In this document: one piece after another, positions 1 through 10,854 of the stretch
How positions within the stretch are numbered: the first letter of the stretch is position 1
Layout of the letters: every line of letters starts with the position of its first letter
UHGV virus genome: UHGV-0142836
Source: a virus
Reading direction: 5' to 3' (one strand)
Length of the DNA stretch: 10,854 nt
Position numbers and translations under genes: made by a program
Notes under the pieces: generated by a model
Seen by the model: the letters and a program-made list of their open reading frames with translations, nothing else
Databases searched by the model: none
What the model was told of the DNA's origin: nothing

Positions 1-692
1 TCATAGTTCCTTCGTAGTTCCTCTTAAAAAATCACTTACAGACACCTTAATATCTATACAGATTTCACGTAGAACACGATTAGTGCGTAAAACAGCTATT
101 ATGTTAAAAACACACTGTATACGTATCAGTACTGATTTATAAGGGTTTTGTGTATTTGAAGATAAGAGGCTATACAGCACCTTGAGAGCATGTCTTCTAA
201 GTCATTGATACATAAGGTCACAGAAGTTTGTGTCTGTTACAGAGAAAACTGGATAGGACTTCACAGAACTACAAAATGTTACAGCTATTGATAGGTGAAA
301 TCTTCTTGATAGATGCTTTGAAGTGTGGTGAAGGTTTCTTGAGGTGGAATTAACAGATGCTATGAAGAAAGTCAATAGTTGGTTATAGATATTTTAACTG
401 CTTTTGCAAAGGGGGTGCTATATCGTGAATCTGGGGTACTTAACAGCCATCAATCATGAGGTAGATTCTACCGAATCAACTGTGTAGATATTTTTAAGAT
501 TATCGGTGAAGGGGGAATGCAGAGGGGGTACTACGATTTTTATAAAAATTTTCAGAAGCTAAATAACTACTGTACAGATTTTATACAACTCTACCAAACA
601 TCATAGAAAGCTCTGTAGCGAGTTTTAACCCCATTTTTAGGGGTAGTCTATAGGTATGTACCGCCCACCTTTAAATAAAGGGGTAAAATCGC

Positions 693-723
693 TTAGAATG
701 CGTTACAGAGCGTCTGAGAAGCT
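693..723. repeat. Solo copy of an R2 arm (see R2 copies at 1949-2047 and 3622-3750)
   Basis: 'ttagaatgcgttacagagcgtctgagaagct' matches the reverse complement of 3622-3652 with about 4 central mismatches, and also resembles the R2 right-arm core 'cgttacagagcg'. Confidence 0.5.
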
Positions 724-1490
724 ATATTCACAGATTTTACTAAAACCTCAGACTTTCTAAGTGGTCTTTTTAACAGGAGGGTTCTTTCTCATGTATCACC
801 CTCTCTTCCCACTGAGTAAGCTACACAGACCTAGAGAACATGCCTTCACAACACCTATATAGGTCAGATTTAGAGGGTTTTGATAGAATCTTCAAAGGTA
901 CTTGACAGATAACTATGAAGTTGTTAGGAAGGAGTGTTTAACGGGGGAAGAGATACGATATAACCCGAAGGGGAGAGTATCATCTTAACAGTGATTGTAA
1001 GAGTAAAACTGAAAAGATACTTAACAGAACTACCAAGAGGGAGCGATAAGACCAGAGGTAGTGACCTTGTTAAACAGTTCGTTTCAAAGCTCTTAAGAAT
1101 CTGTTAAGTAAGGTCATGTGAACAATCTTACCATTTTGTCAATGCTTTTGTCTTTGACCTAAATCAATAAAATGTATCGTTTGATATGTTTTTAAACAAA
1201 ATAGTTAAAAATCTTTTTAGAGGTGCGCTTCGCTTGTGTCACCAATATCATTCTTCCCTGTCTAAGAGGGAAGTTACAGGGCATTTCAAAGCCCTCAATA
1301 GGCAAACCGAGGAATACGGAAAACCGAGGGAAGAAAAACTATTGTGATTACCTTGAACAAGGTCTGTAAAGGTCGTTTAAGAGGTCGGTTAAGAAGGGAG
1401 CTTCCCTTTCTTGGGTGTCGCTCTTCTCCCGCTTAGTGGATTGATTAAGAAGACCTCTGAAGTTTCTCTGTGAAGGTGCTGAACAGCTAT

Positions 1491-1543
1491 TATATTGGGT
1501 GATTACAACTTATTGAAAAATAAGAACTTTTATAAGTTACTGT
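1491..1543. repeat. 53-bp direct repeat, copy 1, containing palindrome 'cttattgaaaaataag' (1509-1524)
   Basis: First 42 bp are identical to 1585-1626, then 2 mismatches in the next 11 bp; internal 6-bp inverted repeat CTTATT/AATAAG around GAAA, followed by AACTT-ttat-AAGTT. Confidence 0.7.
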
Positions 1544-1584
1544 TAAGGTTACAGAGTTAACTGTGAAGAGACTTGTCAGTCTTA

Positions 1585-1637
1585 TATATTGGGTGATTAC
1601 AACTTATTGAAAAATAAGAACTTTTAGAAATTACTGT
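1585..1637. repeat. 53-bp direct repeat, copy 2 (94 bp downstream of copy 1)
   Basis: Same sequence as 1491-1543, including the internal palindromes. Confidence 0.7.
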
Positions 1638-1719
1638 CAGAGAGGTGAATACTTGATAGATACAGCTTTCCGGTTCTGTCAAGCTATTTTTTAATAGATA
1701 GCACAAAATGCTAAAGATA

Positions 1720-1749
1720 CCCCCCTATACATCTCGTACAGGGGGTTTT
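1720..1749. terminator. Probable bidirectional intrinsic terminator
   Basis: GC-rich hairpin 'cccccctatac-atctc-gtacaggggg' (about 9 of 10 bp paired) followed by TTTT on the plus strand and by a T-rich run on the minus strand; lies 10 bp beyond the stop of the minus-strand gene at 1759. Confidence 0.45.
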
Positions 1750-1758
1750 GGAGGGGGT

Positions 1759-1935
1759 TTAGCGGGGGTCTGTATGGTCATTATCCTTAAGGTCAAGCGT
1801 CCATGTACGACCGAACAGTTTAAAGACAACAAGCACCCTGACGAGGACGTAGCGAAGTAGCAGACCTGCAATAAGTCCAATACCTCCACCAGCCCACACA
1901 TCAGGTGACCCCAATTCCTGAGGGAGATTTACCAT
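1759..1935 (-). CDS. Small hydrophobic membrane protein, 58 aa (MVNLPQELGSPDVWAGGGIGLIAGLLLRYVLVRVLVVFKLFGRTWTLDLKDNDHTDPR)
   Basis: The six-frame ORF runs 1759-1977 from a TTG; the in-frame ATG at 1935-1933 is preceded by AAGGA about 7 nt upstream. One predicted transmembrane stretch (GGGIGLIAGLLLRYVLVRVLVVF). Terminator immediately downstream. Function not recognised. Confidence 0.4.
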   Translation of the reverse strand: MVNLPQELGSPDVWAGGGIGLIAGLLLRYVLVRVLVVFKLFGRTWTLDLKDNDHTDPR

Positions 1936-1948
1936 TAGTTTTCCTTGT

Positions 1949-2047
1949 AAGACGCTCTCAATCGCATTCTGACACAAAAAGTATCTGACCTTATGAGTTG
2001 ACCTGAAGAGGCCGTTTAACTCGTTACAGAGCGATTGAAGAGGTCTG
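1949..2047. repeat. R2 element copy 1: inverted-repeat arms (1951-1970 and 2014-2047) around a ~40-bp spacer
   Basis: Left arm 'gacgctctcaatcgcattct' and right arm 'gtttaactcgttacagagcgattgaagaggtctg' are near-identical to the arms at 3631-3650 and 3717-3750; the arms are imperfect reverse complements of each other (GCGATTGA core). Confidence 0.6.
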
Positions 2048-2079
2048 TGTGCAATGCAATAACCATGTGACCAAATACA

Positions 2080-2118
2080 TAGTTGATTCGGTTAGTTGGG
2101 ATTGTACCAACCCCTATC
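2080..2118. repeat. att-like composite repeat (left copy): 18-bp part A at 2080-2097 fused to 26-bp part B at 2093-2118
   Basis: 'tagttgattcggttagtt' is identical to 10825-10842; 'tagttgggattgtaccaacccctat' matches 10529-10554 with 2 mismatches. A degenerate A-like sequence 'catagttccttcgtagttcc' also sits at 2-21. Confidence 0.45.
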
Positions 2119-2204
2119 GAATAAACCTCATAGCCACGCCTTTATATTTTACTCTCCCCATAAACCCATTATACCACAGATGTTAATAAAATGTTAAAAA
2201 ATAC

Positions 2205-2233
2205 TTGACATTAGCCTTTGAAAATGCTAGGAT
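2205..2233 (+). promoter_or_regulatory. Sigma70-like promoter P1: TTGACA, 17-bp spacer, TGcTAGGAT (extended -10)
   Basis: TTGACA at 2205-2210 and TAGGAT at 2228-2233 with TG at 2225-2226; followed by 'ttgtatatat', which is shared with promoter P2 at 4197-4225. Confidence 0.4.
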
Positions 2234-2283
2234 TGTATATATGAGTTAACAGAGAATTAACAATTATAAGGGCCAGCTTATGA

Positions 2284-2835
2284 ATGAACGACAGAGAATT
2301 TCAAAAGTTTCTTGAAGAATCCAAGAGACGCAACAGACACAACGGTTACAGCCACACAAACAACCCCACCAGATACGAAGTCCCAGCCTTTACCAAATCC
2401 GAACGTAAAAACATTGAAGCGGTCATTCGTAGCATTACGCCACGAGACAGATTTATGCCAGCACGCAAAGAAAAAGAGAATACTTTAAAAACTTTCTTGA
2501 TGGGCTTTGATTCTTACGAGCAACTGCCAGCAAAAATTGAAGATTTAATTATCGGCACTTGTCGCAGCTTTGGAAGAGATAATTATCACCGAAAAGTTTT
2601 CTATTTACTACGAAATATTGACAAGATTAGCTCAAGCACAATAACAAGTCATCTACAGCGTCAAGCGACCCGATTAAGCCATGAGCTACCAAGCGATAAA
2701 TATTGCGCTAACTTAGCCACTATTTGCATGAAAGTTATTGAGACAATTAATCATCATGCGGAAATGGGAAATATCAGCCTTACGACAAGTGAGCCAGACT
2801 TTGAGTTTGACCCGTATATTTTGGAGGAATTTTAA
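2284..2835 (+). CDS. Hypothetical protein, 183 aa
   Basis: Intact ORF downstream of P1; its stop is 1 nt before the next start. No recognisable motif; weak Shine-Dalgarno. Confidence 0.55.
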   Translation: MNDREFQKFLEESKRRNRHNGYSHTNNPTRYEVPAFTKSERKNIEAVIRSITPRDRFMPARKEKENTLKTFLMGFDSYEQLPAKIEDLIIGTCRSFGRDNYHRKVFYLLRNIDKISSSTITSHLQRQATRLSHELPSDKYCANLATICMKVIETINHHAEMGNISLTTSEPDFEFDPYILEEF

Positions 2836-2836
2836 A

Positions 2837-3115
2837 ATGAATAAACACACTCTAACCCGTATTTCAGAGGAAGCTTTTAACGAGCTTAACAGAATTAAAC
2901 GAGCGACTAACCTGCCTCATCAGACTATTATGCAGCTTGCAATTGCTAAAGAGGTCACTGAGTCGGATTTACTGAAATATCCAGTTTCTAAAGGTCGCAG
3001 ACACATCAGAATTACTAAGAACGCTCTGGCTACTCTGAAGGAACTGAACAACTTTAAAATTGATATTGCCCGACTATTGAGCATCAAGATTCACAAGCTA
3101 TCGATGGGGGTTTAA
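2837..3115 (+). CDS. Putative small DNA-binding protein, 92 aa, possibly ribbon-helix-helix
   Basis: GGAGG at 2823-2827 sits 9 nt before ATG 2837. The track ORF (2738-3115) extends upstream inside the previous gene, so the internal ATG is preferred. N-terminus 'HTLTRISEEAFNELNRIKRATNLPHQTIMQLAIAKE' fits a strand-helix-turn-helix RHH pattern (inference only). Confidence 0.45.
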   Translation: MNKHTLTRISEEAFNELNRIKRATNLPHQTIMQLAIAKEVTESDLLKYPVSKGRRHIRITKNALATLKELNNFKIDIARLLSIKIHKLSMGV

Positions 3116-3318
3116 TGCTATGCATTACCTTTGAATACCACACAGATAAAATGATTCGCTACATCTCCGACCTCCTGATTAAAGGAAACGGATTCGGTGA
3201 CATCCATAACTCAAAAGATATTTTCATTAAAGCCATTGGCCCAAATGAAACACTGAAAACAGCAGTTAAACCGGAATGGTTTGAACGTCATAAGATTGAA
3301 TTAGGTTATTGGGGGTGA
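3115..3318 (+). CDS. Hypothetical protein, 67 aa
   Basis: Start overlaps the previous stop (TAATG at 3113-3117), indicating translational coupling. No recognisable motif. Confidence 0.45.
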   Translation: MLCITFEYHTDKMIRYISDLLIKGNGFGDIHNSKDIFIKAIGPNETLKTAVKPEWFERHKIELGYWG

Positions 3319-3327
3319 GGAGGTTTT

Positions 3328-3615
3328 ATGAAACCTTGGCATGAAGATGTTAGAAGATATTTTGCAGAACACCTTATCTATGATGAATCCAGTGATTCCC
3401 TGTGCTGGTCTGATGGAGAGTCAGTCACGATAAATACCGACGACTACGGCAACAAAACATTTAATATAGGTCGATACACATTCTATGTGAAATATGTTGT
3501 CTGGTTCCTTTATCATGGCTATCAATCCAATAAGCAAATTATCCATCGAAATGGTAACAGAGCCGATACCAGACCAAAAAACCTTATGCAAGTCCGAGAC
3601 TTTAAGAGAAATTAG
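3328..3615 (+). CDS. Small HNH-family endonuclease, 95 aa
   Basis: GAGGAGG immediately upstream of ATG 3328. C-terminal 'YVVWFLYHGYQSNKQIIHRNGNRADTRPKNLMQV' matches the phage HNH pattern (HRlvw...H-x-dGn-x-dNr-x-NL). Confidence 0.55.
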   Translation: MKPWHEDVRRYFAEHLIYDESSDSLCWSDGESVTINTDDYGNKTFNIGRYTFYVKYVVWFLYHGYQSNKQIIHRNGNRADTRPKNLMQVRDFKRN

Positions 3616-3621
3616 AAAAAC

Positions 3622-3750
3622 AGCTTCTCAGACGCTCTCAATCGCATTCTAACGCAAAAAACTACCTTGTTTTAGGGTGGGTAATACCACTGTACAGGCT
3701 ACCCCTGAAAAAGACTGTTTAGCTCGTTACAGAGCGATTGAGGAGGTCTG
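3622..3750. repeat. R2 element copy 2: arms at 3631-3650 and 3717-3750 around a ~66-bp spacer containing hairpin GGGTA...TACCC and palindrome CTGTACAG
   Basis: Arms near-identical to copy 1 while the spacer is unrelated; the element ends 5 nt before the AAGGAG Shine-Dalgarno of the gene at 3772. Confidence 0.6.
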
Positions 3751-3771
3751 GTAAAAAGGAGATTTTAAGAA

Positions 3772-4095
3772 ATGAACAATTACGAATTACAGATTTTCGT
3801 TGATGCCGACACTGCTATGATGATTCAGGCTTTCAGTGATTCCGGTGTATCAATTGACTTTGATAAATTACTAAAGCTGATGGCTGATAATGCAGAAAAC
3901 ATCTCTGACTTTATTCAGTCGGTGGAGTTTAACGAGCCTCGAATGATGCTACCAATTACAGACTCAAACATGAAAAGATTGGTTATTGAGCAAACGAACA
4001 AATACAGTATTTCCCCAGAGCAATTTTTGAAAGGTGCTGTGACAATCCTGTACAGCGATAATATTTTGGTGACGGATTCTGTGAGGATTCACTAA
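3772..4095 (+). CDS. Hypothetical protein, 107 aa
   Basis: AAGGAG sits 10 nt upstream of ATG 3772; intact ORF; no recognisable motif. Confidence 0.55.
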   Translation: MNNYELQIFVDADTAMMIQAFSDSGVSIDFDKLLKLMADNAENISDFIQSVEFNEPRMMLPITDSNMKRLVIEQTNKYSISPEQFLKGAVTILYSDNILVTDSVRIH

Positions 4096-4172
4096 TGACG
4101 TTAATTGTATTATGGACGCTGCTAGGGCTATTTGTTGGTTGCTGGATGGGTAACACAGTAAATAAGAATTGA
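4095..4172 (+). CDS. Candidate 25-aa hydrophobic micropeptide (MTLIVLWTLLGLFVGCWMGNTVNKN)
   Basis: ATG overlaps the upstream stop (TAATG at 4093-4097), the same coupling geometry as at 3113-3117; single hydrophobic helix. Below the ORF-track size cutoff, hand-translated. Confidence 0.25.
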   Translation: MTLIVLWTLLGLFVGCWMGNTVNKN

Positions 4173-4196
4173 TGTTACCAATCTGTTAAAAAGCTG

Positions 4197-4225
4197 TTGA
4201 CAAATAACATTGAGCATGACATAAT
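4197..4225 (+). promoter_or_regulatory. Sigma70-like promoter P2: TTGACA, 17-bp spacer, CATAAT
   Basis: TTGACA at 4197-4202 and CATAAT at 4220-4225, followed by 'ttgtatatat' exactly as in P1. Confidence 0.4.
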
Positions 4226-4232
4226 TGTATAT

Positions 4233-4416
4233 ATAGGGAGAGCAATTCTCTCTTATTTTCTTTCAATAATCCGATGGATGGATATTCTGAGTTGGAAAGG
4301 TGCAATGCTTTTCGTCATGGCCTTTCAGTTTAGTCTGAGAGGCTATCTCAAAAAGTGCTTAATCATTCATTGAACCCTTTACAGCTTTGCCCTAACTCAT
4401 GATTAGGGCTTTCTTT
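4233..4416 (+). ncRNA. Candidate small RNA or structured leader transcribed from P2, ending at the first terminator
   Basis: About 185 nt between the predicted start site and the terminator at 4389-4416; no ORF with a ribosome-binding site; hairpin GAGAG-caatt-CTCTC directly after the predicted start. Confidence 0.25.
4389..4416 (+). terminator. Intrinsic terminator T1
   Basis: Perfect 7-bp stem GCCCTAA / TTAGGGC with a 7-nt loop, followed by TTTCTTT. Confidence 0.5.
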
Positions 4417-4485
4417 AAGAGTTTTTAAACAGAGCTTTTAAAGAAAGTTTTTCCTGAAACTTCGTTAACGTTAAAGCAAACCTTC

Positions 4486-4519
4486 AAAGCCCTTCACAGA
4501 TTATGTTTAGGGCTTTTTT
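4486..4519 (+). terminator. Intrinsic terminator T2
   Basis: Stem 'aaagccct' / 'agggcttt' with a 15-nt loop, followed by a T-run; its 3' half 'tttagggcttt' repeats T1. Confidence 0.45.
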
Positions 4520-4629
4520 CAGCTTTTAAAAAGCATACTTGGCAAACCGCCTTTTAAGCCTCTTCTAAGTTCGTAGGATGTCAGGTGTGCTTTTTAAAAA
4601 CTGAATATTACTTAGAAGAGGAAAATGAA

Positions 4630-5337
4630 ATGGAAAATCTATATATTAGCGGTAGAAAGGTTGATAGCTTCGGTGACTGGTCGCCACAGACTGAACATCC
4701 AGCTATCACTATTCAGCGTCAAGAGCATGACAAGCGCATTGAGCTTGAGCAATCGCTAAAGATGTCACCAAAAACAACCATCTTTGTGTCTCCTGAACCT
4801 CAAGAGATGCCTGATGTTTGCAAGGGTGAAGCATTACTTGAGCTTGAAAAGAAATATTACCCACTGCTGAAAGCACAAAGAATTAAACTTGATGACGCTT
4901 ACAGCAAAGTTACCCTGATGCAATCAGCTATTGAGCCATCAGAATTTGAGATTCAGGATGAATTGTCACAGAAACCATTTGTCTATTACCAATACGAAGA
5001 CAATGATGGTTTTGGTACTTTTCCTGAGAATATCCCAGACGTGATTAATAATCTTCCTGATGGATATCGAATTGTGAAAATGATTGGAGCTTCAAGAGGT
5101 GATGGTCAGTTTATTTACATGACCAATAAGAGCGATGAAGAACTCCGTGAAATTGCCAGACAGAACATCTTAGCATCACGTAACAAGCAACTTGAAAATG
5201 TTAAGTTGTGTCTCTTAAGAGAGCTTCAGGCTATGAAAGACCTTATTTCTGCATATGAAACGCAGAAGAAGATTGCTATGCAGGCTGATATTGAGCAGTT
5301 AGTGAAGATTTCTCAGAAGTATAGCAAGGTACTTTAA
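4630..5337 (+). CDS. Hypothetical protein, 235 aa, with a predicted coiled-coil C-terminus
   Basis: The six-frame ORF begins at GTG 4585; the in-frame ATG at 4630 has a GAGGA Shine-Dalgarno about 8 nt upstream. No recognisable domain. Confidence 0.55.
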   Translation: MENLYISGRKVDSFGDWSPQTEHPAITIQRQEHDKRIELEQSLKMSPKTTIFVSPEPQEMPDVCKGEALLELEKKYYPLLKAQRIKLDDAYSKVTLMQSAIEPSEFEIQDELSQKPFVYYQYEDNDGFGTFPENIPDVINNLPDGYRIVKMIGASRGDGQFIYMTNKSDEELREIARQNILASRNKQLENVKLCLLRELQAMKDLISAYETQKKIAMQADIEQLVKISQKYSKVL

Positions 5338-5361
5338 CTAATAATTAAAAGGAGGTGATGA

Positions 5362-5577
5362 ATGATTGATTTGCAACAGCGTTATGAAACTATTAAGTCG
5401 GCTTGCAAAAACTTAAAGTTACAAACTAAGCCAGCCTTAAGAATTAAAACCAAACGTCAAGTTATCACCTCACACAAACCAAAAACACGCAAGATTCCAA
5501 AGTGGTGTATCGACCGTATCCCTTCTGATGCCCAAATCATAGGTGAAACGGAATTACATTATCTTGTCAGACATTAA
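5362..5577 (+). CDS. Hypothetical basic protein, 71 aa
   Basis: Strong Shine-Dalgarno AAGGAGGTGA before ATG 5362; Lys/Arg-rich; terminator follows. Confidence 0.5.
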   Translation: MIDLQQRYETIKSACKNLKLQTKPALRIKTKRQVITSHKPKTRKIPKWCIDRIPSDAQIIGETELHYLVRH

Positions 5578-5624
5578 AAAGATTGGTTGGGTGTATGAGA
5601 TAGGTTCTATCGAATCTATAACAC

Positions 5625-5668
5625 GGGGAGAGATTATCGATATTATTCGGTAGTTTCTCCCTTTTTTG
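5625..5668 (+). terminator. Intrinsic terminator after the 71-aa gene
   Basis: Stem GGGAGA (5626-5631) / TCTCCC (5656-5661), extendable with G-U pairs, followed by TTTTTT at 5662-5667. Confidence 0.5.
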
Positions 5669-5684
5669 TATATGAGATAGTCTT

Positions 5685-5769
5685 CTATCGAATCCTATGT
5701 GCTACGTGAAATCTTCTGAACAGATATACCCACCAAAAATTATTTTTTACGTAGCTCACGCTTAACAGA
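5685..5769 (+). repeat. R1 element copy a: conserved stem-loop (GCTACGTGAA 5701-5710 pairing with TTTACGTAGC 5745-5754) plus box 'tcacgcttaacaga', 16 nt before ATG 5785
   Basis: About 85% identical over ~85 bp to 7957-8034, with the same spacing to the downstream start codon. Confidence 0.65.
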
Positions 5770-5784
5770 GGTGAAATATGAACA

Positions 5785-7875
5785 ATGGCACAATTTAAAG
5801 TTGATAGTTTTATCGTTGAGCTAGGCTTCAGCGAGAGCGTTATTAAGGGCTTGCAAAGAGTTGAAAAGGCAGCTTTGCAGTCAGCACAAAGAATTGAAAA
5901 GAACCTAAATAAAGGTTTTAGGATTAATACAAAGCAGCTTGATAGTAATTTAACGGCTTCTTTAGGGCAGCTTGAAAGAAAGTTTAATAAGACTTTTGAT
6001 AAGATTGAACAGAGAGCAAGAAATACTAAAGCTTTCCAGTTTACAACCAGATTTAATGACACTGTTAATCCTCCAAAACAATCAAGGCAACCACGAATTA
6101 GCGGAAACAGAGCAATCACAGCAGCGCATAGCGTGAATATGTCTAAGCTTGGTGATATTAATCCGCTGATGGCTAAAATGTTTAAAGCACAGTATTACAG
6201 CTTAAGCGGTAAGGCTGGTAATATTGGAAGTGAAAAGTTTAACGCTGAACTTGCAAAATTAAATCAATCTCTTCGTGAAACGTTGAATAAACTCAGGTCA
6301 CAGACAAAGACCACCAGCAAAAACAATCACAGTGAAAATGCTTCGAATGGTCTGGATGTATTAGCTACGAGTGCAATCAAAGCAGGTACAGCCATTTATA
6401 GTTTTCAGACAGCCTTAGAAGCTTACAAGAAGGTTATGGAGGTTGGTCTGAAAAAAGAAGCATCACAACGAGCGGCACAATTCGTTTTAGGTGATGAAGG
6501 TGCTAAACGAGCTACAGAATTTGTGAAGAATCTTGCTAATAATACAGGTGTTGACCAGATTGAGACATTAAGCAGCTTTGCTAAGTTTTCCGCTGGTGCT
6601 GGTGATATGAATGCAGACCAGAAAGAATCCTTATTTAGTAATGTGATTGGTACATCCCGACTAATGGGTTTAAGCACTGATGAGATTAACGGGATTCTAA
6701 AAGCTTTCGAGCAGATGGCTTCTAAAGGGAAGATTCAGGCTGAAGAGCTACGTGGTCAATTAGGGGACAGAATGGCAGGTGCTTTTCAGTTATTTGCCAG
6801 AAGCCTTGGGATGACTACAGAGCAATTAGATGCAGCTATGAAGAACGGTAAAGTTCTTTCTAAAGATGTTCTTCCTAAAGTATCCGCTGAAATGGGAAGG
6901 ATGATTGATAAAGCTGGTGGATGGGAAAAGATTATTAACTCTACTCAGACGCAGTTAGGCCGCCTTTCTAATTCATGGAATAATAATCTGGCCTTAATGT
7001 TCGATGGTTCACAGGAAGGTTTAACAGACTTTACAAGGTCACTGACTAATTTACTTAATTCGCTAGGTGGGCAATCTAAAAATCTTGGTGAACATTTTGG
7101 CGACTTGATGAAAAGTATGTCAAACGGTATTGATGATTTAACCACGATTAGCTACCGAGTGCAGGGATTCTTTGACAGAGTGACCCTTGCTTACAGAGAA
7201 TTAAATGACACTCAAAAAGCTGTAGCTGATGGTATCGCAAATGGCCTGTTAAGTGCATTAAAGGGACTTGCTGGTATTGTTGCTGTAAGGTCTGGTATTG
7301 GTGCTGTAGGTGGCATCTGGAACTTAATTAGGGCTATTTCCACGCTTGGAAATGTAGCAAATACAGCAGCGGGAAGAATCAATTCACGTTCTGGTACTGG
7401 TAGTGTTGAAGGTGGTAAAGGAAAATTATCTGTAGCTGATGCAATTACCAAAGTAATGATTGTTGGTATGGCAACTGATGTGATTAACTCCATTGTTAAA
7501 CCGTTCTATGAACGTCAGATGAGTAAGTCAGATAATCCAATTGACAAAGTTGTAAGGTCAAAGGTGGAACCCACAGACCAAGCATTGACTGGTGACATGA
7601 ACTCTTTAGCTGCTGTTTTATGGGCTATGGTTCAGGGCAAATCAAAGGATGTTCCACAGCTTTCACCTGAAGCATTAAATAATCTGAAAGGTCGAGTGGA
7701 AACATTCACACAAGATTTAAAGGTTATCAAGCCGTCAGTAAACATTCAGCCTCAGACAATCAATATCACAACTCAGACGGTACTTGATGGAAAGGTTATT
7801 GATGAAAGAACCACATCGCATATTAATCGTATGCAGGAAGATACCTTGATTAGCTCAGCTTACCCAGAGGAATAA
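5785..7875 (+). CDS. Protein with a phage tail tape-measure-like domain, 696 aa
   Basis: The segment 'FEQMASKGKIQAEELRGQLGDRMAGAFQLFARSLGMTTEQLDAAMKNGKVLSKDVLPKV' resembles the conserved tape-measure domain of lambda-like phages; Gly/Ala-rich hydrophobic stretch 'GLLSALKGLAGIVAVRSGIGAVGG'. Unusually short for a tape measure and lacking neighbouring tail genes. Confidence 0.5.
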   Translation: MAQFKVDSFIVELGFSESVIKGLQRVEKAALQSAQRIEKNLNKGFRINTKQLDSNLTASLGQLERKFNKTFDKIEQRARNTKAFQFTTRFNDTVNPPKQSRQPRISGNRAITAAHSVNMSKLGDINPLMAKMFKAQYYSLSGKAGNIGSEKFNAELAKLNQSLRETLNKLRSQTKTTSKNNHSENASNGLDVLATSAIKAGTAIYSFQTALEAYKKVMEVGLKKEASQRAAQFVLGDEGAKRATEFVKNLANNTGVDQIETLSSFAKFSAGAGDMNADQKESLFSNVIGTSRLMGLSTDEINGILKAFEQMASKGKIQAEELRGQLGDRMAGAFQLFARSLGMTTEQLDAAMKNGKVLSKDVLPKVSAEMGRMIDKAGGWEKIINSTQTQLGRLSNSWNNNLALMFDGSQEGLTDFTRSLTNLLNSLGGQSKNLGEHFGDLMKSMSNGIDDLTTISYRVQGFFDRVTLAYRELNDTQKAVADGIANGLLSALKGLAGIVAVRSGIGAVGGIWNLIRAISTLGNVANTAAGRINSRSGTGSVEGGKGKLSVADAITKVMIVGMATDVINSIVKPFYERQMSKSDNPIDKVVRSKVEPTDQALTGDMNSLAAVLWAMVQGKSKDVPQLSPEALNNLKGRVETFTQDLKVIKPSVNIQPQTINITTQTVLDGKVIDERTTSHINRMQEDTLISSAYPEE

Positions 7876-7899
7876 ACAATGTTAGAACTACTAATATTT

Positions 7900-7917
7900 A
7901 TTGCCACACATGGCAAT
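7900..7917. repeat. Perfect palindrome ATTGCCA-caca-TGGCAAT just downstream of the 696-aa gene
   Basis: 7-bp arms with a 4-nt spacer; possible weak terminator or operator. No clear T-tract. Confidence 0.3.
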
Positions 7918-7956
7918 CTATTAATCTTTATCTAGTATGACGATTCAACTATGAAT

Positions 7957-8034
7957 AGTCGAATGCTACGTGATTTCTTCTGAACAGATACCAACATCAA
8001 AAATTAGATTTCACGTAGCTCACGCTTAACAGAA
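7957..8034 (+). repeat. R1 element copy b: stem GCTACGTGA (7965-7973) / TCACGTAGC (8011-8019), box 'tcacgcttaacaga' (8020-8033), 15 nt before ATG 8049
   Basis: Perfect 9-bp stem with a 37-nt loop whose sequence ('tcttctgaacagata...caaaaatta') is conserved with copy a. Confidence 0.65.
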
Positions 8035-8048
8035 TAGGAATAACAACA

Positions 8049-8819
8049 ATGTTTGACACAAAGCAAATTAGATACTCAGGTAAAGATGGTATCTATTTTC
8101 ACCTTAGAGATAATGTAGAATCTTTTCTTGCCTTAACAGCTACTGAACAGATGGACTATGACAGCCCTATGATGGTGACAACTCAGGCTATGCAATCAGG
8201 GCAAACCGTCACAGATAATGTTCAGAGAGCACCTAAGACCATCTCTATTAGCGGTGTTGTAGTGGTTGATTCGACGGGTTCAATTCTATTAACCAGACAG
8301 GGGCAACTTGTAGAGACCTTTATTTCTACGGTTGAACAATGGCGAGACCAGAAGCAAATCATCACTATTGTTTGTAGAGATGGAATAGCTATCACTGATA
8401 GTATCATTACTCAGTTTAAAGCGAGTAAAGAGCATACCATTGCTAATGGTCTTCGTATTCAGATGACCTTCCAAGGTGTAGAATTTCGTTCAATCGTAGG
8501 TCAAACTGATATTTCGGCTGCAACTGGAAAAGCCGCGACTACGAATGATGGTGGTGCTACCAGTAAAAAGAATACAGGGAATACTACGACAAGTTTAGGT
8601 AATGGTATGTTGCTGTGTCAGGAGTTATATAATCGCTCTACGAGTGAACTCACTAATGAGCAACTTCAAGCCCGTATCAATTGTGGTAGAAGTGTCAAAG
8701 TTGAGAACGGAAAAAGCACCTTCTCAGATGCCGCTAATGAGCAGGCTTCAAAAGTGCTTAAGTCGGGTAATGCTTTACGGAAATTTAGTGTGAATCCGAA
8801 TAAGAAGGGCACTTATTGA
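8049..8819 (+). CDS. Hypothetical protein, 256 aa, with a Thr/Gly/Ser-rich central region
   Basis: Intact ORF immediately after R1b; no recognisable motif. A distal-tail or other structural role is conceivable only from its position after the tape-measure-like gene. Confidence 0.55.
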
Positions 8820-8851: not shown

Positions 8852-10372
8852 TTACAGTTGATAAGCGTCAATATCCAGTAGCTCTTTATCAGCAATTTCA
8901 AAGATTGGTGACCCATCATTTAGCGGTAACGGGTTTGTAGGTATGGTGATTTTAGTGTCGTTCTGTAGCGTTACAGTTACCGAATCCTTACCCAATGTAA
9001 GCCCTTTTAGATGTTTGGACAAAATCAACTGACACTCGACACGACCTGCTTTAGTTGTCAGGTCAATATCTTTAAGCTGGGGTAGTTCCTTATCAGTGAG
9101 TGAAGCCTTACGCCTCATGTTATCAATCGTGGTCTGTAGCTCTGTGCGCTTCTGGTTAAGTCCCTTCACCTGTGTTTTCAACTCTGTAATATCATCCATT
9201 TCAAGAAGTAGGGCGGTAGCTTTCTTGATTCTAGCTGTGACAATTTCAACCTCATGCTGTAACGCTGCAATCTTCCTCTCTGATTCTCCATCATTCCCCA
9301 CGTCAATCATCCCCAGAAAATTATCAATCATCCATCGGTCAAACGGTTTACGCTTCAACGGTGGAACATCACAGCGACCGTCAGGATTGTTATTGCACCT
9401 GTAAACTCCTGCATACTTATTCTTAGTCCCTGTAGGGTGAACACTAGCCCCACACTGACACCGGAATAATCCCTTGAAGATGTTAATCGTTAATGGGTTA
9501 TCACTTGCAGGTGTACGGCCTTTACGATTTTTATCGAGGATTTCTTGAGCTTTATTGAACGTTGCAGCATCTATAGCGGCTTCGTAGTAGTTCGGTATAG
9601 CGGGGCGGTCATTGCGCTGTGATGCTGGTAACGTGCCTATTGTTGTCTCCGACCTTAAGATGGTGCGTACAGAGTGGACACTAAACCCGTTAGCATCTTT
9701 ACGCCGTGAGAATGAACTAATGTTATTAGCCTGTAGGTGACGTGCAATGTTATGTAGACTTTCACCATCTAGCAGCAGTTTGAAAATCAGTCTTACAGTC
9801 TCAGCGTGTTCATTGACTTCAAAAGTCTCAGGGTCAATCCATCCGGGGACCATCTTTGTTAAACGTTGTTTACCAGCAAGGGCAAGTTTTGCACGTTGCC
9901 CCCATTTCTGAGAAACACGGAAAGACTTCTGTTTACTCTCCTGATGCGCTAGGTAGCTTTTAACCCGCTGAATGATTGAGATTCCTAAATCATCGGATAG
10001 AGCATCCCTTGTGTAGATTAGCCCATCCTGTAGAGTGTGAATCTCGATACCATGAGCAATAATGCGGTTCATCAAGGCTTCTGTTTCAAGGTGTTCTAAG
10101 CGGCCTATACGGTCGATACTCTCAACAAGCAAAATCGTACCTTTTGAAAACTCCCCAGACTCAATACGGGCTAACATGTCACCAAACTGACCAGTAAGGT
10201 GCTTACCTTTGTAACCGGATAGACCCTCATCACTGAAAGACGCTACTACTTGAGCATCGCTATTCTTCTTCAACCATTGCTTGAACAGGTCATTTTGTCG
10301 TCTGGTTGAATCTGCACCTTCAGCGCCTTGTATGGCTGAACTGTACCGAAGGTATGTAATTACGCTTCTCAT
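8852..10372 (-). CDS. Large serine recombinase (phage or element integrase), 506 aa
   Basis: N-terminal resolvase-type catalytic domain (YLRYSS...Q with the Ser nucleophile, DEGLSGYKG, IDRIGR); a Cys cluster (CQCGASVH...YRCNNNPDGRCD) consistent with a zinc ribbon; C-terminal coiled-coil segment. Confidence 0.9.
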   Translation of the reverse strand: MRSVITYLRYSSAIQGAEGADSTRRQNDLFKQWLKKNSDAQVVASFSDEGLSGYKGKHLTGQFGDMLARIESGEFSKGTILLVESIDRIGRLEHLETEALMNRIIAHGIEIHTLQDGLIYTRDALSDDLGISIIQRVKSYLAHQESKQKSFRVSQKWGQRAKLALAGKQRLTKMVPGWIDPETFEVNEHAETVRLIFKLLLDGESLHNIARHLQANNISSFSRRKDANGFSVHSVRTILRSETTIGTLPASQRNDRPAIPNYYEAAIDAATFNKAQEILDKNRKGRTPASDNPLTINIFKGLFRCQCGASVHPTGTKNKYAGVYRCNNNPDGRCDVPPLKRKPFDRWMIDNFLGMIDVGNDGESERKIAALQHEVEIVTARIKKATALLLEMDDITELKTQVKGLNQKRTELQTTIDNMRRKASLTDKELPQLKDIDLTTKAGRVECQLILSKHLKGLTLGKDSVTVTLQNDTKITIPTNPLPLNDGSPIFEIADKELLDIDAYQL

Positions 10373-10528
10373 GGTGATAAACTCTCATGCAATTGATTAT
10401 CATTTAAAGATAAGCTTATAACCGTTATGGCTAATGCTACAATGCCGAATAGCTACAATACAATGACCCTTGAATGAAGTCTATTCGGTTTTCTAAGAGA
10501 CCTGTTAAAAACAGGACAATATCAGGTG

Positions 10529-10554
10529 TAGTTGGGCTTGTTCCAACCCCTATG
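10529..10554. repeat. att-like repeat part B (right copy), containing hairpin GTTGG-gcttgtt-CCAAC
   Basis: 'tagttgggcttgttccaacccctat' matches 2093-2118 with 2 mismatches; lies about 155 bp upstream of the recombinase start. Confidence 0.4.
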
Positions 10555-10824
10555 ACTATGCAATTTTCCAAGTATCTAAGCAGTTTTACACAGATTCTAT
10601 GCAGTATCGGTATAGTCCCTTTTTATCATAACTTATTGAAATATATAAAGAATATGTGAAGTCCCTTTTCAGGGTAAACTGTATCGTGTTAGTCGTCCCT
10701 CTCCAGACTCCTAGAAAAGTGCTATATACAGGAGTATATAACGCTATATAGATGTTTGGTCACCATACGTTACAGTTGCAAGAGATAACAATCAGCTATG
10801 TGAAAGTTAGGAGGTGATGGTTAT

Positions 10825-10842
10825 AGTTGATTCGGTTAGTTC
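10825..10842. repeat. att-like repeat part A (right copy), 18 bp identical to 2080-2097
   Basis: Exact 18-bp direct repeat about 8.75 kb from its partner; flanking sequence differs on both sides, as expected for a recombination junction. Confidence 0.45.
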
Positions 10843-10854
10843 TAGGAATCAACC

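Follow-up and report, generated by a model that had tools for sequence, protein, structure and literature searches.

A repeated octamer in an integrative island of Escherichia coli as a candidate imitation of the terminal-repeat words of Felix O1-like phages

The satellite P4 carries a P2-type cos site, and the cos- and pac-type SaPIs and PICIs likewise share the packaging signal of their helpers. Short words repeated in the terminase region are known from the R sites of lambda cosB, the pac hexamers of P1, and the pac boxes of SPP1, and comparable repeats from the terminal repetition and concatemer junction of T7. The present analysis concerns UHGV virus genome UHGV-0142836 (10,854 nucleotides; "the window" denotes this whole stretch at its full length), which represents an integrative island of Escherichia coli and in which the octamer CTTAACAG is strongly over-represented. 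The octamer looks like the island version of a short word, CTTAACA(G/A) with the core TAACA, that fills the direct terminal repeats (DTRs) of Felix O1-like phages. With a probability put at roughly one half, its copies are interpreted as cis-acting sites through which the island imitates the terminal-repeat or concatemer-junction region of a helper phage, and which would be recognised by a phage DNA-handling protein. This interpretation was preferred to that of a promoter element because the block of non-coding DNA in which most of the enrichment is found is related to the phage DTR region.

Like P4, the SaPIs, and the PICIs, the island is a small integrative element with few morphogenesis genes and with what may be a copy of the helper's packaging recognition region. 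It is unlike them in that the signal mimicked would be the DTR or concatemer junction of a virulent myovirus rather than the cos site or headful pac site of a temperate phage, in that the similarity is patchy (65–80%) and does not amount to a near-identical site, and in that genes for a tape-measure protein (TMP) and a distal tail protein (Dit) take the place of genes for capsid size or terminase redirection. No hallmark gene of P4, the PICIs, or the PLEs was found in the island with Pfam, PHROGs, and NCBIfam. As in lambda, P1, SPP1, and T7, a short word is repeated beside a genome-end site, a CTTAACA-type word of the Felix O1-type phages being located 5–8 nt inside each DTR boundary; unlike this arrangement, the word itself is unrelated in sequence to those of the other four phages.

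In its proposed mode of action, the island comes closest to P4, the SaPIs, and the PICMIs. PICMIs are small integrative satellites of virulent vibriophages that amount to about one eighth of the helper genome, lack capsid-remodelling genes, and are packaged as concatemers of about eight units in full-size heads (PMC10803314). They carry AlpA, an integrase, and a primase, are located next to fis, and have random (headful-like) ends and no identified packaging site (PMC10803314). The island resembles them in its size (10.85–11.27 kb within its family, relative to 86–90 kb for the helper-type genome); it differs by its large serine recombinase, its tail genes, its DTR-like block, and the lack of a recognisable primase. 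The PLEs of the virulent vibriophage ICP1 are also integrative islands with a large serine recombinase that parasitise a virulent myovirus, as is proposed here for the island (PMC9638900, PMC9410903). They are said to replicate upon infection and to direct a nuclease effector against the phage (PMC9638900, PMC9410903); in contrast, no replication gene or nuclease effector was recognised in the island, and no sequence relationship to the PLEs was seen.

Ten exact copies of CTTAACAG were counted in the window (seven on the plus strand and three on the minus strand; Table 1), where 0.58 were expected from 200 dinucleotide-preserving shuffles; none of these shuffles reached ten copies, the largest number being three. 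When up to one mismatch was allowed, 38 matches were obtained (12.0 ± 3.5 expected), a number again reached by none of the 200 shuffles. Under a first-order Markov model the octamer comes first in over-representation among the 8-mers of the window (10 vs. 0.53, P ~3e-10), and related words rank next (CGTTACAG, 6 vs. 0.19; the 7-mer TTAACAG, 17 vs. 2.4). The strong over-representation that had been asserted in an earlier note on this DNA was therefore found to be greater than stated once the k-mer count against shuffled sequence proposed there was carried out. All seven copies listed in that note are exactly placed, those at 2885 (+), 7246 (−), and 8132 (+) having been overlooked, and its four near-matches (at about 350, 770, 898, and 2245) all appear in the one-mismatch list. 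Its extended context, (g)gtACTTAACAG, was retained in part: TA-CTTAACAG is common to 439, 1020, and 1101(−), and ggtA occurs only at 439 and at the near-match 901. The exact copies are divided between approximately 3.9 kb of non-coding DNA (seven) and approximately 7.0 kb of coding DNA (three). Most of the non-coding DNA forms one long block across the window ends (from about 10373 to 10854 and from 1 to about 1720), the rest being made up of smaller intergenic stretches; two of the latter hold the copies of an 88-nt cassette, designated R1 (5700–5787 and 7964–8051, 82% identical), each with one octamer.

The same octamer was found in the genomes of Felix O1-like phages. In garuso, 23 copies of CTTAACAG were counted where about 5 were expected, seven of them within a single gene-free region of approximately 1.6 kb between convergent genes; Felix O1 contains 21 copies, eight of which are in the homologous region. 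No phage copy precedes a structural gene, and one more conserved copy is located in the divergent intergenic region between DNA polymerase and gp22. The gene-free region contains the DTR of approximately 0.6 kb: the record of NBEco005 opens and closes with the same stretch of about 650 nt, and several other phage records start or end at these two positions. A DTR of 608 bp has been mapped experimentally in the relative UAB_Phi87 (PMC4837284). Since the GenBank record of that phage does not start at the mapped terminus, the DTR boundaries were taken from NBEco005 and from the other record ends. In the DTRs of four phages, 15–18 TAACA[AG] words are present on one strand, and three to four inverted copies are crowded at the right boundary. 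At the left end of the DTR a CTTAACA-type word begins 8 nt in from the terminus, and at the right end one in inverted orientation stops 5 nt short of the terminus. Columns within the words are more conserved among the four phages than those within the spacers (82% vs. 62% invariant, Fisher P 3.6e-5). With boundaries taken from record ends and from the DTR size mapped in UAB_Phi87, the phage words are clustered next to the genome ends, as pac- or cos-type arrays are.

Comparison of the island's non-coding block with the garuso genome in bins of 1,650 nt gave a maximum of 45.4 bits and a sum of 183 bits for the bin containing the DTR and values of at most 34 for all others, shuffled controls reaching 22.6–34 bits. 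The DTR-core-like block of the island (988–1133) has its best match in the whole garuso genome at 49645–49777 (65% over 146 nt, 45.4 bits), is 77% identical over 69 nt to Mordin (E 2e-6) and 86% identical over 36 nt to Felix O1, and is conserved among the islands. Further to the left, window 371–423 is 77–78% identical to the DTR interior by the left boundary in Felix O1 and Mordin (E 3e-5), and window 538–590 is about 80% identical to DNA situated 75–130 nt outside that boundary; the equivalent stretch of the Citrobacter island gave an alignment of 179 nt running straight across the boundary (E 1e-11). In a database-wide search, window 371–504 matched Felix O1-type phages with E values down to 9e-13. 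When window 350–1140 was compared with 50,697 phage records, 75 were matched, and the strongest matches were all to Felix O1-type genomes of 85–90 kb, the matched DNA being unannotated and often located where a record starts or stops. In the EA2 island, a hairpin segment of 56 nt at the left end (L009 5891–5946) is 93% identical (E 1e-17) to positions 257–311 of NBEco005 (L005), a piece that constitutes a DTR insertion missing from garuso, Felix O1, and Mordin; this identity shows that islands and phage DTRs exchange DNA. When viral contigs were scanned with the invariant 15-mer AAGATACTTAACAGA, the only matches were isolated ones, attributable to chance, in contigs that are unrelated, the pattern being too short for that collection. 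As a separate observation, window 686–728 (AAATCGCTTAGAATGCGTTACAGAGCG..., 43 nt) is about 91% identical to positions 451–492 of the Salmonella phage polluks (L144). The matched DNA is unannotated and is found about 0.5 kb from the record start in approximately 35 T5-like (Epseptimavirus) Salmonella phages; a second family of virulent phages thus also shares, in its terminal region, a short element with the island.

Conservation of the individual boxes was assessed in 14 related islands, the fractions given below referring to those relatives whose alignment reaches the box in question. In the long non-coding block, box 1101(−) is intact in seven of seven relatives, including the Citrobacter island with a flank identity of about 81%, and box 1020 in six of seven, again including the Citrobacter island (L012); AAAGATACTTAACAGA at the latter box is invariant in an alignment of four islands. 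Box 984 reads CTTAACAG in four relatives and CTTAACAA in the other two of six, box 439 is present in three of four islands (L021 reads CTTAGCAG), and box 1540(−) is intact in three relatives, with the variants CTTAACAA and TTGACAG elsewhere. Box 8025, which belongs to the R1 copy before the Dit-like gene, is intact in 11 of 12 relatives, the Citrobacter island reading CTTAACAT. As regards the coding copies, the one at 2885 has drifted in five of six relatives (to CTTACCAG, CTTACCCG, or CTTAACCG) and the one at 8132 drifts to CTTATCAG in diverged islands; box 7246(−) is kept, but the sequences compared are 92–99% identical and the comparison is uninformative. In the Citrobacter island, whose identity over window 807–1524 is about 70%, boxes 984, 1020, and 1101(−) are all intact, and the chance that all 24 positions would survive at 70% identity was estimated by us as about 2e-4. 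The non-coding boxes thus appear to be under purifying selection. The proposal of the earlier note that the octamer is a binding site can be upheld to the extent that a protein-binding word is the most reasonable description of boxes conserved on both strands across diverged islands; its extension to a promoter element is taken up below.

The identity of the binding protein, a function in packaging or in replication, and dependence on a helper are matters that we infer as follows. When a Felix O1-like helper infects the cell, the words at the phage concatemer junction would normally be recognised by one of the phage's DNA-handling proteins. The likeliest candidate would be the recognition component of the packaging (terminase) machinery, and a replication or end-processing protein would be the alternative; in Felix O1-type phages, no small terminase subunit has been recognised (PMC3185647). 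The same phage protein would recognise the array of the island, by which means island DNA would be processed and packaged in helper particles, perhaps as concatemers of about eight units (8 × 10.85–11.27 kb, corresponding to a phage genome of 86–90 kb).

Several findings weigh against an imitation of the helper's terminal repeat. The similarity between island and DTR is patchy (65–80% over 40–180 nt) and in part rearranged or inverted, nothing corresponding to the right DTR boundary was found in the island, and the boundaries in these phages were taken from record ends, not from mapped termini. The phage arrays consist mostly of a broader family of words (CTTAACA 12 times and TAACAAG 11 times in garuso; CTAACAAG seven times and CTTAACAG only twice in the Citrobacter phage Mordin), and the island favours TTAACAG (nine times in the non-coding block), so that the two sets of words overlap but do not coincide. 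No co-variation of the words of island and helper was seen, the Citrobacter island keeping CTTAACAG though Mordin mostly uses CTAACAAG; as a test of the imitation this comparison favours neither side. Inside the DTR the phage array is strictly one-stranded, and the island boxes are in both orientations. A search of the literature yielded no binding or genetic data on the DTR words of Felix O1-type phages. The R1 cassettes have no similarity to phage DNA (sensitive blastn of three R1 copies against four phages, best E >0.2), so that their boxes must be explained separately or in addition. Finally, the joined form was not found in an exact search of viral and metagenome collections for the attP junction, which therefore gave no independent sign of excision or packaging.

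Table 1. Positions in the window of the octamer copies, of the segments related to phage terminal repeats, and of the other features of the island.
Feature	Positions	Strand	Remarks
CTTAACAG box	439..446	+	non-coding; context GGGGTA-CTTAACAG-CC; within the segment colinear with the phage DTR left-boundary region
CTTAACAG box	984..991	+	non-coding
CTTAACAG box	1020..1027	+	non-coding; inverted pair with 1101-1108, flanking the DTR-core-like block
CTTAACAG box	1101..1108	-	non-coding
CTTAACAG box	1540..1547	-	non-coding; at the end of the first copy of the 53-nt repeat 1491-1543
CTTAACAG copy	2885..2892	+	coding, within orf92; probably incidental
CTTAACAG box	5761..5768	+	closes R1 copy 1, before the tape-measure gene
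CTTAACAG box	7246..7253	-	coding, within the tape-measure gene
CTTAACAG box	8025..8032	+	closes R1 copy 2, before the Dit-like gene
CTTAACAG box	8132..8139	+	coding, within the Dit-like gene
One-mismatch near-match ATTAACAG	349..356		
One-mismatch near-match TTTAACAG	769..776		
One-mismatch near-match CTTGACAG	901..908		
One-mismatch near-match GTTAACAG	2245..2252		
Segment colinear with the phage DTR left-boundary region	371..590	+	covers DNA inside and outside the repeat
DTR-core-like block	988..1133	-	core 1039-1105 (AGGGAGCGATAAGACCAGAGGTAGTGACCTTGTTAAACAG...); homologous to the DTR centre; boxes 1020 and 1101 bracket the block
R1 copy 1	5700..5768	+	before the tape-measure gene; inverted pair CTACGTGA / TTACGTAGC; -10-like TATTTT
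R1 copy 2	7964..8032	+	before the Dit-like gene
Degenerate third R1-like piece (AGATTTCACGTAGAACACGATTAG...)	36..105	+	no open reading frame downstream; also in L015
Intrinsic-terminator-like hairpin and T run	5625..5662	+	parts the upstream operon from R1 and the tape-measure gene
Tape-measure protein gene, Felix O1-type	5785..7875	+	696 aa; Pfam TMP_3, E 7e-20; Felixounavirus DNA similarity
Dit-like distal tail / baseplate gene, Felix O1-type	8049..8819	+	256 aa; Pfam Dit_like, E 2e-17; PHROG 3721, E 6e-129
Large serine recombinase gene	8852..10372	-	506 aa; Pfam Resolvase, Recombinase, and Zn_ribbon_recom
attP	10444..10490		inverted arms CCGAATAG / CTATTCGG around the 13-nt core CAATGACCCTTGA (10461-10473)

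The window is the joined (attP) circular or tandem form of an integrative island of about 10.9 kb, because a 13-nt core flanks the integrated copies and the window ends are contiguous in EA2, where window 10500–10854 and window 22–1155 adjoin within the integrated island. Integrated copies with the same recombinase start at window 10461 and end at window 10473, and the 13 nt CAATGACCCTTGA are found at both ends of the integrated islands L020, L021, and L023, at the 5' end of tonB, and singly in the attP of the window. The core was seen to include the start codon of tonB (ATG ACC CTT GA...), so that integration spares tonB and swaps all of the DNA upstream of it for island DNA; the island DNA placed there (...GCTACAATA) holds a −10-like hexamer, TACAAT. 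Other islands of the family have a different recombinase and are inserted within yecE. DNA matching the window was detected in 570 of 5,426 complete E. coli genomes, or about 10%, on the chromosome in every case, and related copies were found in E. albertii, another Escherichia species, and Citrobacter.

Apart from the non-coding stretches described above, the only DNA in common with known phages is that of the tape-measure and Dit-like genes, each about 75% identical to Felixounavirus; at the level of amino acids, the tape-measure protein is 28% identical overall to that of Felix O1 and the Dit-like protein 68% identical to its homologue. A protein of 95 amino acids was assigned to Pfam HNH_3, and the remaining open reading frames are orphans in Pfam, PHROGs, NCBIfam, and PADLOC. 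With Pfam, PHROGs, and NCBIfam, the 10.9 kb, in which the orphans could hide diverged functions, yielded no recognisable capsid, portal, terminase, sheath, or tube gene and no recognisable Rep, replication initiator, primase, or helicase; nor was a confident regulator or replication protein obtained when PADLOC and PDB sequence searches were included. The island accordingly combines two properties of satellites: an integrase with att sites and chromosomal integration, and an incomplete set of virion and packaging genes, of which only those for the tape-measure and Dit-like proteins were recognised. No tRNA genes are present in the window. A hydrophobic open reading frame of 58 amino acids (1725–1901, minus strand) was noted in the "non-coding" block, downstream of a strong leftward promoter-like site (2197–2168); its counterpart is annotated as hypothetical in relatives (e.g., WP_000247742.1 in EA2).

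Island lengths fall within a narrow range (10,854–11,274 bp for the window, L009, L020, L021, and L023), and eight units make up 86.8–90.2 kb, which equals the genome size of Felixounavirus (86–90 kb for the helper type). This ratio of one eighth is suggestive of packaging in eight units. The cargo of the islands varies despite their constant length and includes a methyltransferase, an AP2-like gene, and a small recombinase. The island is probably an undescribed, widespread, satellite-like element, no Felix O1 satellite, tonB/yciI island, or DTR-mimicking satellite having been found in a search of the literature. A more far-reaching proposal, which is put forward tentatively and with the odds against it, is that these islands form a widespread family of satellites of virulent Felix O1-like (Ounavirinae) phages, in which DTR mimicry, packaging in about eight units, and production of the tape-measure and Dit-like proteins from helper-responsive R1 promoters would be combined. 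As part of that proposal, CTTAACA(G/A) would be the recognition word of a packaging or end-processing protein of the phage.

The R1 cassettes occur in the islands only before the tape-measure and Dit genes, with the degenerate copy at 36–105 in addition. Copy 1 is an exact insertion of 69 nt relative to island L015, and the strong terminator-like hairpin that is found just upstream of it is kept in relatives upstream either of R1 or of the ribosome-binding site of the tape-measure gene. Before the tape-measure gene, R1 is precisely absent in five islands and its box reads CTTAA-AG in several others; before Dit it is present in every island examined, with a distance from box to ATG of 16 nt in some and about 85 nt in others. 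Across 21 R1 cassettes, CTACGTGA, the −10-like TAnn(t)T, TTT-ACGTA, and GCTTAA are invariant; the box reads CTTAAAG in six of the 21, and only GCTTAA of the box region is invariant. The fixed distance between box and start codon that had been claimed in the earlier note is real in the window, where the box precedes the ATGs at 5785 and 8049 by exactly 16 nt, but it was not sustained as a general rule: a single duplicated cassette is involved, and the distance varies in relatives. Being one duplicated cassette, the two R1 copies count as one event, not as two independent placements.

In the phages, the tape-measure and Dit genes abut without intergenic DNA, and no counterpart of R1 was found in a fuzzy search of Felix O1 and on inspection of the upstream intergenic regions of garuso. 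Neither a derivation of R1 from phage DNA nor its identity with a phage late promoter was retained, no R1-like element or shared non-sigma-70 motif having been found. R1 was also rejected as an RNA structure: folding gave weak z-scores (−1.4 and −2.6), and changes in the arms are not compensated. The right arm ACGTACAAC occurs together with an unchanged left arm, and no Rfam match was obtained in the window at E values up to 1. Because each of the two ACGT-core arms changes without the other, the arms look more like DNA sites than like the stem of an RNA. R1 is best regarded, by inference, as a regulated promoter/operator cassette that would supply the captured tail genes with an expression signal of their own, the box being placed in the 5' untranslated region. 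This box may couple the tail genes to the same binding protein as the other boxes, or it may be incidental. It was further observed that the tape-measure gene is bracketed by the R1 direct repeats and that the N-terminus of its product differs strongly among islands (54–90%); the repeats could promote exchange of the tape-measure gene as a cassette.

An unlikely alternative is that the boxes are operators of a DNA-binding regulator encoded by the island, for example a small orphan of the 2284–4095 operon, and control island transcription including that of the R1-driven tail genes; the likeness to the DTR would then be due to common ancestry or to a regulator that also targets the phage. Boxes on both strands, in pairs or in inverted pairs such as 1020/1101(−), are frequently seen with operators, and each R1 is closed by one box directly upstream of the ribosome-binding site of the tape-measure or Dit gene. 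Several small island proteins are unassigned: orf92 has a weak DndE-like match (E 0.002, far below the curated cut-off), and orf183 and orf107, in which helix-rich segments are seen by eye, may bind DNA. On the other hand, no island protein was confidently assigned as a DNA-binding protein or regulator, and R1 is dispensable before the tape-measure gene, only GCTTAA being invariant among cassettes of which 6 of 21 read CTTAAAG. The siting of the boxes in DTR-homologous segments and the phage's own array of words at its DNA ends would be left unexplained.

Recognition by a replication protein at an origin was rated lower again, as a rather doubtful proposition. The boxes would in that case be iterons, the island would mimic an origin in or near the phage terminal repeat, and it would be replicated by the T7-like replisome of the helper (DNA polymerase and primase-helicase). 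Replication would indeed have to be borrowed, the island having no recognised Rep, primase, or helicase; long stretches of non-coding DNA with repeated words are typical of origins, and the additional conserved CTTAACAG of the phages is located in the divergent intergenic region of DNA polymerase and gp22. However, the island boxes are irregularly spaced (36, 81, and about 440 nt) and of mixed orientation, unlike classical iteron arrays; regular repeats in the same orientation with an adjacent initiator, by which an iteron origin is recognised, were not found, and any helper-dependent origin would have to be of another type. In the phages, the words hug both termini of the DTR in inverted orientation, for which recognition or cleavage of ends provides a better fit.

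That the octamer might be a promoter element for an alternative sigma factor or polymerase, as the earlier note had supposed, was not supported: the motif precedes genes only in R1, at a distance that ranges from 16 to about 85 nt in relatives, and no sigma factor or RNA polymerase was recognisable in the island with Pfam, PHROGs, and NCBIfam. The related possibility that the boxes are extended −35 elements (TTAACA) of sigma-70 promoters, or a recognition element for a phage-redirected RNA polymerase, is considered improbable. TTAACA is one base removed from TTGACA (the near-match at 901 reads CTTGACAG), passable −10 sequences follow copies 439 and 1540(−) at 16–18 nt, and a similar −35 context, CTTTACA(G), is found in phage early-gene cassettes; in addition, R1 itself is probably a promoter, with the invariant TAnn(t)T directly upstream of ACGTAGC and a terminator before copy 1. 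Against this, the −10 scores obtained 16–18 nt downstream of 14 CTT[AGT]ACAG sites correspond to random background (3 of 14 reach a score of 5), and for this reason a −35 function was rejected; the promoter-scan total of the window equals the shuffle expectation (28 vs. 27.6). Within R1, the box is downstream of the −10-like hexamer, and the 16 nt that separate it from the ATG are too short for a −10 element, a start site, and a ribosome-binding site. The array of the word in the phage is moreover situated between convergent genes, a position that calls for no mRNA promoter, and just as the island has no recognised gene for a sigma factor or RNA polymerase, none was reported in the genome paper of Felix O1 (PMC3185647). 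As an observation apart from the boxes, the small early genes in the garuso record (43300–48700) are each preceded by a cassette composed of CTTTACA(N)GGGGCTT, an AAGCCCC hairpin, and a −10 element; its −35 context, CTTTACAG, is one base off the octamer and is enriched in Felix O1 (23 vs. 5.2).

That the octamer has no function at all and owes its enrichment to segment duplication and to AT-rich, repeat-rich DNA from a phage ancestor is very improbable and largely refuted by conservation: two copies do belong to a single cassette that was duplicated (R1), conservation is lacking for the coding copies 2885 and 8132, and the window is rich in other repeat families, but five independent non-coding copies remain where 0.58 are expected for the whole window, the non-coding copies are intact in islands that are just 70–80% identical, and the word columns of the phage DTRs are significantly more conserved than the spacers.

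Felix O1-type phages find wide use in the typing of Salmonella, in biocontrol, and in therapy. If the boxes do imitate the terminal repeat of such a helper, a common E. coli island would be a likely satellite of virulent Ounavirinae, with a bearing on the efficacy of phage therapy and on gene transfer, and the short list of satellites of virulent phages would gain a member with tail genes and an imitated terminal repeat. The octamer would then point to a cis recognition word for DNA-end formation or packaging in Felix O1-type phages, in which the packaging signal, the small terminase subunit, and the transcriptional programme have not yet been established (PMC3185647); boxes 984, 1020, and 1101, the segment 371–590, and the R1 cassettes would be direct targets. 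Should this interpretation be wrong, a well-conserved, repeated, putative protein-binding word in a widespread mobile element would still have been described.

Further repeats were observed in the window. A family designated R2 is represented at 1944–2047 and 3624–3750, with a partial copy at 685–726, and forms a long imperfect hairpin (GACGCTCTCAATCGC ... GCGATTGAGGAGGTC); the minimum free energies of the two hairpins are −31 and −45 kcal/mol, and the family carries the enriched word CGTTACAGAGCG. One copy is placed before orf107 and the other upstream of divergent promoters at about 2170–2230. Repeated sites of the form AGTTGATTCGGT(T/A)AG are found at 470–486 (−), 2079–2117 (+), 10823–10854 (+), and 10529–10553, with right halves of the form TAGTTGGG-TTGT-CCAACCCCTAT. 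In relatives, a small recombinase of about 190 amino acids is encoded there (L020 3469–4044, L021 2023–2571, and L023 2005–2574), in opposite orientations depending on the strain, which suggests a segment that can be inverted or deleted and of which the window has the sites, not the gene. A direct repeat of 53 nt (1491–1543 and 1585–1637, 96% identical and 94 nt apart) contains ACTTATTGAAAAATAAG, and a third, partial copy is located at 10625–10645, beyond attP. Lastly, a perfect palindrome of 15 nt, CCTGTTAAAAACAGG (10500–10514), adjoins attP and is kept at the left end of integrated islands.

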